NCBI GenBank assembly: GCA_902553145.1
Contig: CACDKD010000002.1
Location: 160,990-224,989, forward strand
Origin: an uncultured Gammaproteobacteria bacterium
GTDB lineage: Bacteria > Pseudomonadota > Gammaproteobacteria > Steroidobacterales > UBA11654
DNA length: 64,000 bases
Direction: 5' to 3'
Made by a program: the position numbers and the translations under genes
The notes under the pieces: generated by a model
The model's database searches: none
What the model was told of the DNA's origin: nothing
Seen by the model: the letters and a program-made list of their open reading frames with translations, nothing else
Part shown: positions 55,768 through 63,958 of the stretch, in pieces
How the letters are laid out: each line of letters starts with the position of its first letter
Numbering within the stretch: position 1 is the stretch's first letter

Positions 55768-57035
55768 ATTCTTTCTCTATTTTGCATATACGGTCTTAGA
55801 ACATCAGGAATGGTGACGGAGCCATCCTCATTTTGATAATTCTCTAGAACAGCAATAAGGGTTCTTCCAATAGCCAACCCTGAACCATTGAGGGTATGAG
55901 GGTAATCGGTTTGCTTGGATTTAGAATTTTTATACCTAGCTTTCATTCGCCTTGATTGAAACGACTCGCAATTGCTACAAGATGATATCTCTCTATAAGT
56001 CTCCTGTGAGGGGAGCCATACTTCTAGATCATAAGTTTTTGCGGCTGAGAAGCCTGTATCTCCGGAGCAGAGAAGCATCAATCTATATGGCAGTTTAAGT
56101 TTCTGCAGAATGGATTCTGCATTTTTTGTAAGTTCCTCAAGAGCTTCGTAAGATTCATCCGGCTTGACGATATGAACAAGCTCTACTTTTTCAAATTGAT
56201 GTTGCCTAATCATTCCCTTGGTATCTTTTCCATAAGAACCGGCTTCTTGCCTGAAACATGGTGTATGTGCGGTCATCTTGATTGGCAATTCATTCTCTTC
56301 AAGAATGCTTTCTCTGATTAAATTTGTAAGAGGAACTTCAGCTGTTGGAATTAGATACAAACCCTCCTCATTTTCAATCTTATATTGATCCTCTGCAAAC
56401 TTTGGTAACTGGCCAGTGCCCTCCAAGCAATCTGATCTGACGATATTTGGGACATACATTTCAGTATAGCCGTTCTCTTCAGTTTGAACATCGAGCATAA
56501 ATTGCTTCAAAGCCCTATGAAGTCTTGCATACCCATCCTTCATAACAACGAATCTTGAACCCGATAATTTCGCGGCAGATTCAAAATCAATACCGCCGTT
56601 ACTTTCACCCAGTTCGGAATGATCTTTTGGCTCAAAATCAAATTTTGGTAATTTACCCCATGACCTTACTTCGATATTCTCTTCTTCACTGGAACCTTCA
56701 GGCACAGATTCATCAAGAATATTAGGAATCTCTAAGCCCATCTTTTTGGTTTGCTCGGAGAGTTCGTTGAGTGATTGCTCTGATTCTTTTAGTTTTTTAT
56801 TGATAGTTCCAACCTCAGAAATTAGGTCAGACTTGTCATTTTCTGAAATTTCAGGACTGGCAATACTTTTATTGATGTTATTTTTTGACGACCTAAGCTC
56901 CTCAACCATTGAGATTAGATCTCTCATTTTCTGATCCATTTTTAAATAAGAATCAAGATCAAAATCAGAACCTCTTTTTTTCAGTGAGAGACTAACTTTT
57001 TTGGTTTCCTTTCTAAGTGTTTTTGAATCTAACAT
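55764..57035 (-). CDS. serS: seryl-tRNA synthetase
   Basis: 423 aa. N-terminal coiled-coil arm and class II motifs (FRQEAGS.G.DT.G.IR.HQF.KVE, GSGLA.GRT..A.LEN.Q). Confidence 0.97.
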   Translation of the reverse strand: MLDSKTLRKETKKVSLSLKKRGSDFDLDSYLKMDQKMRDLISMVEELRSSKNNINKSIASPEISENDKSDLISEVGTINKKLKESEQSLNELSEQTKKMGLEIPNILDESVPEGSSEEENIEVRSWGKLPKFDFEPKDHSELGESNGGIDFESAAKLSGSRFVVMKDGYARLHRALKQFMLDVQTEENGYTEMYVPNIVRSDCLEGTGQLPKFAEDQYKIENEEGLYLIPTAEVPLTNLIRESILEENELPIKMTAHTPCFRQEAGSYGKDTKGMIRQHQFEKVELVHIVKPDESYEALEELTKNAESILQKLKLPYRLMLLCSGDTGFSAAKTYDLEVWLPSQETYREISSCSNCESFQSRRMKARYKNSKSKQTDYPHTLNGSGLAIGRTLIAVLENYQNEDGSVTIPDVLRPYMQNRERI

Positions 57036-57442
57036 GCTTTGGTACTTTTTATCTTGTTAAGTATATCTTTTTTAAATACATGAATAAAACTTAAGAAAAT
57101 ACCAACTACGTCTGCAAACAAATCCAGCCATTCGAACGTCCGATAGGCAACGGTCATTTGCAATAACTCTAAACTAAACGCATATACAGTCATAAAAATA
57201 ATAATCACTAATGCTTGATCAGGCCTCACTATCAAGAAGAACCATAGCGATGACAGGTAGAAGAATGCGATATGGGCCAATTTATCAATGGAAAATGATG
57301 TATCTATATCAACATCAGGAACTTGCATTAAATGCAAATATAGACCCATTGTGACAATGAAGAATGAAACAACTATCTTGAAAACAATTCCAAATCTAGA
57401 TATCCCTGGCATGGAAAAATCTAATTTACTTTTTGGACTCAC
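57029..57442 (-). CDS. VanZ-like membrane protein
   Basis: 137 aa with 4 TM segments. DKLAHI..F and E.LQ......R.F...D..AD..G are VanZ hallmarks. It occupies the slot where rarA lies in E. coli. Confidence 0.6.
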   Translation of the reverse strand: MSPKSKLDFSMPGISRFGIVFKIVVSFFIVTMGLYLHLMQVPDVDIDTSFSIDKLAHIAFFYLSSLWFFLIVRPDQALVIIIFMTVYAFSLELLQMTVAYRTFEWLDLFADVVGIFLSFIHVFKKDILNKIKSTKAC

Positions 57443-61951: not shown

Positions 61952-63958
61952 CTATAACTTTCTGTCGTATTTTGATCTCTCATTGGGATCGCTTAAGGTT
62001 TGAAATGCTTTTTGTATCTCTTTGAATTTTTCTGACGCATTTTTTGCTTTATTTCGATCAGGATGATACTTCATTGCTAGCCTTTGATATGCCTTCTTAA
62101 TGTCAGCCTGCGAAGCATTTGTGCTAATTCCAAGAATTTCATAGTAACTTTTTTTTGCTTTATTTGACTTCGTGCGCTTTGACGACCTCTTTTTTTTCTG
62201 TCTCTTTGATTGTTTTTTATCATCATAATTAGTTTGACTGCGCTGTGCTTTTTCTGAGTTCACTTCTTCTTTATCGCTTTCATCTGATGGATAGATCCAA
62301 TAATAAAGCTTCATAAATAGTGCACGAATCTTTGCTTTAATATTTCTTAGTAGGTTTGATACTTTATTTATTAAGCCTATTCTTACTCGCTTTAAATTCT
62401 CACCTATTCTTTGTTTTGTTAAATTCTCTTTGAGTCCTTTTATGATTCCCTTCATTCCAATTTCGGATACTGCTGCACTGAAAATAACAAAAACCATGAA
62501 AAGGATATCCAAAGCTAGGGATATCCTATTCTTTCTTGTATCACTCTCTCTTTTCAATTTTGCTTCAAGTTCTCTTTGTTCTTTTAGCCTAGCTAATCTC
62601 TCTTTCTCTGCTAACTCTGCTTCAAGCCTTCTCTTTTCTATAGCAATACTCTCTTTCCTTTGTCTCTCAAATTCTTCATTTTGGGCAATTCTGTCTTTTA
62701 TTTTTCTTTGAGTTAAAGAAATTTCCCCTTCTAATTCGTCTTTTTTCCGGTTGAAACGGTATTCGTTGATGTAATCAGCCTCTCTAAATGATTGAGGATT
62801 TACTATTCCCATAAGATTATTCGGATTTGGAAGCGAAGCATACTCGAGATGTATTGAATTCACTTCTTCTATCAAATCTTCTAACTGTTTTTTCCATTTG
62901 AGGGAATCTTTCTCTTTTTGAATCAAATTTCTATACTTAATAATCTCTCGTTTCAAGCTGTCTCTTTTACGAGGAAAACCTCTTTCTTCATCAAGATAGT
63001 CGTTATCATTAATCTTTAAGAGATATTCGGATGTGCTAATGTTGCTTCGACTTTTTGAATTTAAAACTAATTCATAACTCATCACTTGTTTTAATTCCTC
63101 TACTAAATCTTCTAACTCATTCTTTCGTTCAAAAGCATTGATCTCTTCAGCAATCTTAAAGCTCTGATTATTAAGTGAATTATCTTTTCGATCTTTTTCA
63201 TCCCTAATTTTCAATTCTATTGCTTTATTTAGAAGTTCTTCACGTAGGAGATTATTAGCTGCAAGCAGCGAGTCAAATTTCTTATTCAGATCATCATGAA
63301 ACTCTCTAATAAAGAAAATACACAATAAGCAGGGATTATTGGGCTCTACACGACTGTCAAATTGGTGACCATAAGACTTATATTTTTTGGTATCTGACCA
63401 CCATTCTATTGCGTCGGTATGCCCGCTTGTGCTGCCATTCATGCTGATATTGATTAATACAGGCAAACAACCATCCGAATCTAGTTGTCGATCACTGTGG
63501 ACTGCCCCAACTGGTGTATATGAGTAAAATGTCTGTTTCAAATAATACATAAATTCAGCATGGTCTTGATAAGACCTTCCTATTAAAAATTCACTATTGC
63601 TTTTTTCGTCAAATGGAATTTTTGAAATAAATTCATCAATTATTGAGTCTATTGGAACTTCGAGGAACTTCTGATTAAACATAAACTGATTGTATTCATC
63701 AGGAAACATCTCTTCCTTGCTTGGCAAATCTACAGAGTTAAAAATGGGATGATTCAGAAGATCACATACCTCATCAATAGTTGCCATTTTTCCAAATGAA
63801 ACATACTTCTGCTTTGTTTTTGCACTAGTAAGTATAAAATCTTTATCATTCTCAGCTCCATCTTGAAAAGACGAAGCATCTTGAGGAGCAAAAATCAGTG
63901 AGAAGGAAAGTGGTATAAAAATGAATAGCTTTTTTAAGCTGTTTTTGCTCTTAATCAT
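61952..63958 (-). CDS. membrane-spanning J-domain protein (signal peptide + large N-terminal domain + repeated coiled-coil + TM + basic linker + C-terminal DnaJ domain)
   Basis: 668 aa. N-terminal signal [26 protein letters not shown] at about aa 479-501 ([23 protein letters not shown]). K/R-rich linker. C-terminal J-domain [32 protein letters not shown]...[20 protein letters not shown] with HPD. Confidence 0.75.

Follow-up and report, generated by a model that had tools for sequence, protein, structure and literature searches.

A J-domain protein with a predicted exported orphan module, encoded in a hypervariable cassette of uncultured marine Gammaproteobacteria

The analysed stretch of DNA, hereafter the window, comprises 64,000 nucleotides (nt) of a contig from an uncultured gammaproteobacterium (CACDKD010000002.1, positions 160,990 to 224,989). 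Near its right edge, the reverse strand (61952..63958) carries an open reading frame (ORF) of 668 amino acids (aa) that encodes a J-domain protein. The start of this ORF is unambiguous: two codons further upstream there is an in-frame TAA, which makes the ATG the first possible start. From the N-terminus to the C-terminus, the protein is composed of a signal-like segment, a domain with four cysteines including a PCLLC motif, a charged helical stalk with an internal duplication, one transmembrane (TM) helix, a K/R-rich linker, and a C-terminal J-domain with an intact HPD tripeptide. These parts had been listed in a first-pass annotation made from the letters of the window, and all of them were confirmed, with the nucleotide positions given for the repeat, the TM helix, and the J-domain converting correctly. 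The gene is translationally coupled to a gene for a small polytopic membrane protein, and the two form a hypervariable two-gene cassette of about 2 kb between near relatives. In the clade with the HPD J-domain (named the J-clade), the genes are arranged as plsX, fabH, the small membrane gene, the J-protein gene, a convergent gene for a 61-aa lipoprotein, infA, trxB, ftsK, lolA, and serS.

The J-domain is the sole Pfam match in the 668-aa protein, with no TerB domain found, and the only J-domain in the window. PF00226 matches aa 604–665 with 90.8 bits (E = 6e-26, cutoff 27.8) and is covered over positions 1–63 of 63, and the HPD tripeptide (H632-P633-D634) is invariant in all five aligned J-clade sequences. 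The protein therefore belongs to the J-domain superfamily. Compared with the J-domain of E. coli DnaJ, the identity is 57%, the helix II-loop region included, and at this identity the domain likely stimulates the ATPase of DnaK. Among the NCBIfam models, DnaJ and TopJ are the best matches of the J-domain, and the DnaJ, TopJ, CbpA, and DjlA models all match via this domain alone and far under their cutoffs. The DnaJ_bact model reaches 90.3 bits against a cutoff of 377 bits over profile positions 1–64 only, the CbpA model 52.6 bits against 403, and the DjlA model (PRK09430) 33 bits against 162 in the J region only. The protein is a J-domain protein of the heterogeneous class C (type III). Furthermore, the J-domain is the best-conserved part of the protein, with no substitution relative to the near-identical locus L001 and 87% identity to the more divergent J-clade locus L016 (aa 601–640).

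Hydropathy analysis (Kyte-Doolittle) identified exactly two hydrophobic segments in the 668-aa protein. The N-terminal one (aa 6–29) reaches values of 1.3–1.5, with four lysines in the n-region and a 15-residue uncharged run at aa 11–25. Similar N-termini are found across the family: an uncharged run of 11–26 residues is present in nine of nine compared, and K/R precedes it in eight of them and is lacking in one. The second segment is the TM helix, which lies at the equivalent position in every full-length family member. Behind it, the AlphaFold2 model of the linker shows an amphipathic helix (aa 521–555) followed by a disordered K/R/S-rich stretch, with a predicted local distance difference test score (pLDDT) below 50 over aa 554–605. 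The net charge differs strongly between the two sides of the membrane segment, being -15 in aa 25–240 and +21 in the post-TM linker (aa 502–603), and the cysteines are confined to the pre-TM part, with none in the predicted cytoplasmic part. The signal-like N-termini, the single conserved TM helix, the +21 linker, the functional-looking HPD J-domain that needs cytoplasmic DnaK, and the restriction of cysteines to the predicted periplasmic side together support an N-out/C-in topology, which is the only arrangement consistent with this evidence. The predicted placement of about 450 aa in the periplasm and of the J-domain on the cytoplasmic side, as first proposed, is supported by these sequence features. 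A signal peptide that is cleaved or a signal anchor that is not may form the N-terminus, and the same topology would result from either. A clade represented by protein P0010 is consistent with the predicted cytoplasmic position of the tail, since its post-TM tail is a K/E-rich coil and its paired 270-aa partner, as read from its sequence, lacks a long hydrophobic segment.

The domain between the signal-like segment and the stalk (aa 25–240, the N-domain) is an orphan. No match was found in Pfam, NCBIfam, PADLOC, or PHROGs, and sequence and profile searches of the PDB were empty. In the full-length AlphaFold2 model, aa 1–235 were too poorly predicted for use (pLDDT <50), and a domain-only model built from a deeper alignment of eight diverse sequences was taken instead. 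This model has a mixed alpha/beta fold, with a pLDDT of 71.3 and a predicted template modelling score of 0.73. A Foldseek search with it returned no neighbor (best E = 3.7 in the PDB and 0.23 in BFVD, with TM-scores <0.2). The searches for families and structures that had been proposed for aa 25–240 identified neither, and for the non-J part as a whole there is no match to a described family or fold. All four cysteines (C65, C164, C210, and C213) are invariant in five of five aligned J-clade sequences. The CxxC motif formed by the last two (C186 and C189 in domain numbering) is invariant in every sequence of alignment A5 that spans both, and lies in the domain model in a short helix (aa 187–191) preceding the helix of aa 194–224. 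Relatives of 26–57% identity have three invariant motifs in common, namely G..A..(D/E)(V/I)C.L..HP.F, (E/F)(V/I)PID..I..F.S..P, and C..CIFF. Across clades, 28 columns are invariant, and the columns common with the clade of 26% identity (full-length numbering) include C65, H70, D104, S112, W186, C210, C213, and D229. A CxxC at a helix start is common for redox-active CxxC motifs. Here, no thioredoxin, DsbA, or Redoxin match was found in Pfam or NCBIfam and no thioredoxin-fold structure in Foldseek, and a redox role is only a candidate.

The stalk connects the N-domain to the membrane. AlphaFold2 predicts helices at aa 264–293, 327–374, and 399–499, the last of which enters the TM segment, with a pLDDT of about 80–90 over aa 270–480. 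The stalk contains 22% K+R and 22% D+E, and E/R/K account for 50–57% of its membrane-proximal part (about aa 420–480). Within it, the two repeat copies align with a Smith-Waterman score of 79, compared with 31 ± 5.8 in 2000 shuffles (z = 8.3), none of which reaches 79; the internal duplication noted at first is therefore real. The label of coiled coil that came with it was not confirmed. Although the helices are confident, the heptad a/d periodicity of the stalk is not significant, being equalled by 12 and 19 of 200 shuffles (6–10%), and a canonical coiled coil is unsupported. The membrane-proximal aa 420–478 look more like an ER/K-rich single helix. Relative to the window, the P0004 and L016 alleles have a deletion of about the length of one repeat unit (about 75 aa). 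The difference between the J-clade alleles seems to be about one copy of the stalk repeat. The coordinates of all features are given in Table 1.

Table 1 Features of the J-protein gene and its neighbors in the window
Feature	Residues	Window position (nt)	Strand	Remarks
Signal-like N-terminus	1–24	63887..63958	-	Four K, then uncharged stretch
Orphan alpha/beta domain, predicted periplasmic	25–240	63239..63886	-	Net charge -15; four Cys
CxxC motif	C210-L-L-C213	63320..63331	-	Located at, or close to, the beginning of the long helix leading into the stalk
Charged helical stalk	241–478	62525..63238	-	Ends in ER/K-rich helix continuing into the TM helix
Internal repeat, copy 1	271–340	62939..63148	-	31% identical to copy 2
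Internal repeat, copy 2	347–413	62720..62920	-	31% identical to copy 1
Single TM helix	479–501	62456..62524	-	Kyte-Doolittle peak 2.53 at aa 479–497
Basic linker, predicted cytoplasmic	502–603	62150..62455	-	30% K+R; net charge +21
J-domain	604–665	61964..62149	-	PF00226; HPD aa 632–634 at 62057–62065
Small membrane partner gene, 3′ end	last 12 codons + TAA	63962..64000	-	Cut by the window edge, which lies 42 nt upstream of the J-protein ATG
Acidic lipoprotein gene, convergent	61 aa	61760..61945	+	Lipobox LVGC, Asn at +2

The distribution of the family was analyzed in several collections. A word-index search of 5.8 billion proteins identified four full-length relatives with the same architecture (97, 93, 52, and 45% identity). 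With the N-domain alone, this type of search missed even the orthologue of 97% identity, and the index profile search missed P0001–P0004; exhaustive HMMER with an N-domain profile was used instead over 1.84 billion cluster representatives. It gave seven matches, six of which are genuine relatives. The seventh, P0009, is spurious, being a Thr/Ala-rich repeat protein matched via five short stretches. A wider profile search added two further family proteins. In GTDB, a first scan with two J-clade peptide patterns gave no match, and a scan with a broader profile found one locus in 185,579 species representatives, namely L016 in a single-cell genome whose record is titled ‘uncultured gamma proteobacterium’. 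Nine family loci were found in marine metagenomes, and all members found are marine. No family copy was detected in the viral contigs, phage genomes, and plasmids searched. The ORFs are intact in every lineage (more than nine lineages), and this, together with the 28 invariant columns, indicates that the gene is not decaying.

Comparison of these relatives revealed a constant module made up of the signal-like N-terminus, the Cys domain, charged helices with an ER/K helix at their end, and the TM helix. This module is followed by different tails. The HPD J-domain is found in the window clade and the L016 clade. The tail of L021 (1-1548, +) contains a J-like domain in which KPI replaces HPD (...ALMYKPIEN...). 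In the P0010/L023 clade the tail is about 115 aa long and K/E-rich, with a conserved C-terminal YPFIDxYIDNR, and P0006, P0011, and L022 have a short basic tail. The J-domain is therefore not the core of the family but one in a set of interchangeable cytoplasmic outputs on an undescribed module predicted to be exported. Two members deviate in other ways. L021 possibly has two adjacent hydrophobic segments after the stalk. P0007 (L002 431-1480, 349 aa) ends seven residues past the TM helix, and its near-identical copy in L023 (1236-2612) has 458 aa. A frameshift or mis-assembly is therefore the probable origin of P0007, which is unlikely to be a natural variant without a tail.

The upstream partner gene is cut by the window edge, and its 3′ end in the window reads QKSEYISSLFDI before the stop codon, identical to the C-terminus of a 110-aa ORF in L001 (9665-9997). 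The partner is a polytopic membrane protein of 110–122 aa, with a continuous hydrophobic stretch at aa 1–60 and a further segment at about aa 70–90 according to hydropathy, and it has no family match. In L001, L004-6, L007, L016, L019, L020, L003, L015, and L022, its ORF either overlaps the start of the main gene or lies upstream of it at a distance of 3–19 nt. This coupling is common to three divergent clades, being found in the window-type, P0003, P0004, and L016 alleles as well as in the P0006 and P0011 clades, which lack the J-domain. In the P0010 clade (L010 4244-5056, +, and 5053-6396, +; L023; L025), an overlapping gene for a 270-aa coiled-coil protein replaces the small membrane partner.

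The two coupled genes differ sharply from their surroundings in sequence conservation. Between the window (or L001) and L016, the aa identity is 90.5% for PlsX, 93.8% for FabH, 98.6% for InfA, 92.8% for TrxB, and 94.7% for FtsK, compared with 39% for the small membrane protein and 42.7% for the J-protein. At the nucleotide level, the left flank keeps 81% identity up to about 60 nt inside the small ORF, and similarity returns on the right, at 88%, near aa 581–584 of the J-protein, just before the J-domain. The cassette recombination boundary thus falls within the basic linker, near window position 62210 (aa ~583). Over the roughly 2 kb between the flanks, window-type and L016 sequences have no detectable nucleotide similarity except for two patches, one at aa 53–110 and the other at aa 208–224 around the CxxC (87.8% over 49 nt). 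At least four alleles, of 588–668 aa, occupy this fabH/infA site, which lies among core housekeeping genes and has no mobility genes. In L024, an L016-type cassette (92%) is followed by a 3′ flank of the window type (97%). At its 3′ end, L016 shares 97% identity with the P0003 allele, and also with L007. The hybrid L024 and the 3′ ends common to L016 and P0003 indicate that cassettes recombine among closely related backgrounds. The J-domain alleles are also shuffled relative to the N-terminal alleles (window 61952-62210 compared with L016, L024, and L007).

Substitution patterns between the window and L001 were analyzed by codon comparison. The ratio of nonsynonymous to synonymous substitution rates (dN/dS) is 0.72 in the N-domain and 1.03 in the stalk, compared with 0.08 in the TM helix and linker and 0.03–0.10 in the neighboring housekeeping genes. 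Counted as codon differences, nonsynonymous to synonymous changes amount to 41:8 in the periplasmic part and 38:160 in five pooled neighbors (Fisher p = 4e-17). Of the 45 aa differences from L001, 35 are located within aa 295–422, in the duplicated stalk units. The dS of the J-protein gene (0.043) is below that of the flanking genes (0.09–0.18), which suggests a recent exchange of the window/L001 allele.

Several further genes lie around the cassette. The lipoprotein gene belongs to the conserved flank, outside the cassette, and its stop codon is 6 nt from that of the J-protein gene. It adjoins the J-protein gene in every J-clade locus that extends past the J-protein stop, with 70.5% identity between the window and L016, and its product has no family match; it is only a possible part of the system. 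In L003, the small membrane ORF and the J-less homologue P0006 are preceded, at a distance of about 200 nt, by a 106-aa ORF with a TerB domain (260-580, +; Pfam 25.6 bits, cutoff 24.4), and an AhpC/Redoxin gene lies downstream. The TerB ORF was seen at this one locus only; its co-occurrence may be meaningful, as DjlA also has a TerB-like domain. Between lolA and serS, the window carries a 137-aa membrane ORF (57029-57442, -) that overlaps the serS start, and the equivalent in L001 has a weak VanZ-like Pfam match; in E. coli, this position is occupied by rarA. Rfam identified two distant tRNAs in the window and nothing else. A scan for sigma-70 promoters and terminators was uninformative, with fewer promoter-like sites than in shuffled sequences.

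The architecture had at first been matched to no described family. This stands for the non-J part, but the topology has a counterpart in the mitochondrial import-motor J-protein Pam18/Tim14, which has its N-terminal domain outside, in the intermembrane space, a single TM helix, and, on the side of Hsp70, a J-domain at the C-terminus, and Pam18 and Sec63 place Hsp70 at translocons (PMC5773037). The window protein resembles Pam18 in the topology predicted from its sequence, with N-out orientation, single TM helix, and C-terminal J-domain. Pam18 acts beside the polytopic partner Tim17/Tim23, and the gene of the window protein likewise lies beside a polytopic membrane gene, whose 110-aa product is the only membrane protein linked to it. 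Furthermore, Pam16 is a J-like relative of Pam18 without HPD, and L021 is similarly degenerate in the present family. However, Pam18 is small, with a short and unrelated outer segment, whereas the outer part of the window protein is about 450 aa long, hypervariable, and contains an orphan domain; in addition, its J-domain is of the DnaJ type and no translocon homologue is linked to it.

The bacterial J-proteins differ more. DjlA directs DnaK to clients associated with the membrane, and needs both its membrane tethering and its J-domain for DnaK to loosen the IgaA-RcsD interaction (PMC11709261). The predicted window protein is similar in having a cytoplasmic C-terminal J-domain and a single TM tether to the inner membrane, but DjlA has its TM helix at the N-terminus, few periplasmic residues, and a cytoplasmic TerB-like domain, while the TM helix here follows a large predicted exported region at aa 479–501. 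ZipN/Ftn2 of cyanobacteria and ARC6 of chloroplasts are bitopic proteins with a cytoplasmic or stromal J or J-like domain and a sizeable periplasmic or intermembrane domain (PMC6391411). They show the reverse arrangement, with J at the N-terminus, the opposite orientation, no signal peptide, and an outer domain unrelated to that of the window protein; their J-like domain is probably Hsp70-independent, and their function is FtsZ tethering. DjlB and DjlC of E. coli are class-C J-proteins with one inner-membrane TM helix that work with HscC (PMC8215388). Being tail-anchored, they have practically no periplasmic part; their divergent J-domains are specific to HscC, and their genes are linked to hscC. 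In class A/B proteins (DnaJ/CbpA), the J-domain is N-terminal, in contrast to its C-terminal position here, and their further defining features, namely a G/F region, a Zn-finger (class A), and substrate-binding domains at the C-terminus, are absent. In summary, the window protein fails the defining tests for DnaJ/CbpA, DjlA, and ZipN/ARC6, and its resemblance to Pam18 is in predicted topology only. Compositional matches of relatives to PD-Lambda-1 (19 bits), IcmG/DotF (19.7 bits), and TolA (16.6 bits), all on stretches of TM helix plus charged helix, were rejected.

The reading that we favor, with somewhat better than even confidence, is that the protein is a bitopic N-out/C-in recruiter of DnaK, tethered to the inner membrane and equipped with a variable periplasmic input. 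Its export, its topology, DnaK as the Hsp70 partner, the binding to the small membrane protein, and the coupling of a signal across the membrane are steps that we infer. The signal-like N-terminus would direct Sec-dependent export of about 450 residues, so that the orphan Cys domain with its invariant CxxC would be carried in the periplasm on a long charged helical stalk. Past the single TM helix, the very basic linker would present the DnaJ-type HPD J-domain to the cytoplasm. There, the J-domain would recruit DnaK-ATP to the membrane site and trigger ATP hydrolysis, and DnaK would then clamp a client held beside the TM helix. As the client, the complex that the protein would form with its co-translated small polytopic partner is most plausible, or else a stretch of this partner that lies in the cytoplasm. 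The periplasmic domain and the partner would provide specificity or input, exchanged as a cassette and fast diversifying, while the J-domain would be the constant output. The partner has diverged in step with the J-protein (39% versus 43% identity, with flanking proteins at 90–99%), which we count in favor of the DnaK recruiter. DjlA, Pam18, and Sec63 are precedents for a J-domain that, tethered to a membrane, determines where Hsp70 acts.

Several observations weigh against it. No canonical AxA signal-peptidase site is evident at the N-terminus. K/R residues are also frequent immediately before the TM helix, which makes the local positive-inside signal weak and leaves only the wider charge balance decisive for the orientation. 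No dnaK gene is linked to the locus, and the sister clades without a J-domain imply that DnaK recruitment is not the core function of the family. With a dN/dS near 1, the stalk could be merely a spacer. Finally, the N-domain model is of moderate confidence only (pLDDT 71), and the missing fold match is therefore no proof of a new fold.

The pattern of variation invites a different explanation, in which the locus is an envelope conflict module. The variable periplasmic domain and the partner would meet an invader, such as a phage protein, a DNA-injection machinery, or a bacteriocin on its way through the periplasm; frequency-dependent selection would keep divergent alleles; and the J-domain would link the encounter to DnaK by exclusion, by abortive signalling, or through the invader's own DnaK dependence. 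The cassette proteins with their 39–43% identity amid flanking proteins of 90–99%, the sharp nucleotide boundaries with the recombinant L024, the 41:8 versus 38:160 codon differences, the variable copy number of the repeat among alleles, and the four or more alleles at one fabH/infA site all speak for such a role. However, PADLOC defence models gave no match for the window protein, the partner, or the lipoprotein, and PHROGs gave none for the first two. In addition, no copies were found on viral contigs, phage genomes, or plasmids, the locus sits amid core housekeeping genes without mobility genes, and a periplasmic protein is not directly exposed at the surface; weak constraint on a spacer could also give fast evolution. 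We consider the conflict module unlikely as it stands, and it may be a complement to DnaK recruitment as much as its rival.

The shape of the outer part recalls TolA, with its globular head, long charged helical segment, and single inner-membrane TM helix, and the protein could be a structural tether or ruler of the envelope in a mirror image of TolA. The stalk would then project the N-domain to the peptidoglycan or the outer membrane, and the cytoplasmic tail would anchor it or aid assembly and turnover, with no signalling. About 240 residues of confident charged helix between the globular head and the TM helix, the ER/K-rich membrane-proximal helix in every clade, a stalk length that differs by one unit of about 75 aa among alleles, the interchangeable cytoplasmic tails, and a weak compositional resemblance to TolA domain II fit this picture. 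On the other hand, the J-domain is the most conserved segment and keeps its HPD, which argues for a selected Hsp70-dependent activity over a passive anchor, and no peptidoglycan- or outer-membrane-binding domain was detected. TolA itself has the reversed domain order, is energised by TolQR and the proton-motive force rather than by Hsp70, and shows no homology, the 16.6-bit match (cutoff 59) on the relative P0011 being compositional only. TolA is also an envelope protein exploited by colicins and filamentous phages. A passive tether thus appears quite unlikely. Very improbable is a cytoplasmic or tail-anchored-like J-protein whose N-terminal segment is no export signal and whose ‘TM’ is an amphipathic or oligomerisation helix, or a gene decaying under relaxed constraint: the missing AxA site, an h-region of only about 13–15 residues, and the dN/dS of 0.72–1.03 in the N-domain and stalk relative to the closest strain are outweighed by an N-terminal hydrophobic segment kept in nine of nine members despite 26% identity elsewhere, a TM helix with a Kyte-Doolittle value of 2.5 and conserved position, ORFs that are intact in over nine lineages and have 28 columns invariant between clades, a dN/dS of 0.08 in the TM helix and linker, and an unchanged J-domain. 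Both the TolA-like spacer and the non-exported protein are less likely than the DnaK recruiter and the conflict module.

A bolder idea, to which we give only a slim chance, would make the locus a polymorphic trans-envelope device. The periplasmic domain and the partner would capture something, and the tethered J-domain would set DnaK on what was captured, either as an Hsp70 ratchet pulling a polypeptide inward in a bacterial counterpart of Pam18/TIM23, or for DnaK-dependent exclusion or sensing of a phage or bacteriocin, with the alleles kept by frequency dependence.

The evolutionary pattern, an allelic cassette between fabH and infA, is the most unusual aspect of the locus. Cassette divergence with a dN/dS near 1 is usually a mark of genes for surface or conflict functions, and not of those for chaperone co-factors. 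What is new here is the membrane-anchored J-protein on an undescribed, predicted periplasmic module; the function of the J-domain itself is ordinary. Membrane-tethered J-domains decide where Hsp70 acts, and the described bacterial examples, DjlA and DjlB/C, barely extend beyond the cytoplasm. If the predicted topology is true, a bacterial J-protein with a large periplasmic domain would be a candidate link between an event in the envelope and DnaK, mirroring mitochondrial Pam18. The outer module carries a J-domain in some lineages and a coil, a short tail, or a J-like domain in others, which offers natural domain-swap controls. In conclusion, a protein family and a domain not described so far are defined by this locus, in marine bacteria that are abundant and uncultured.

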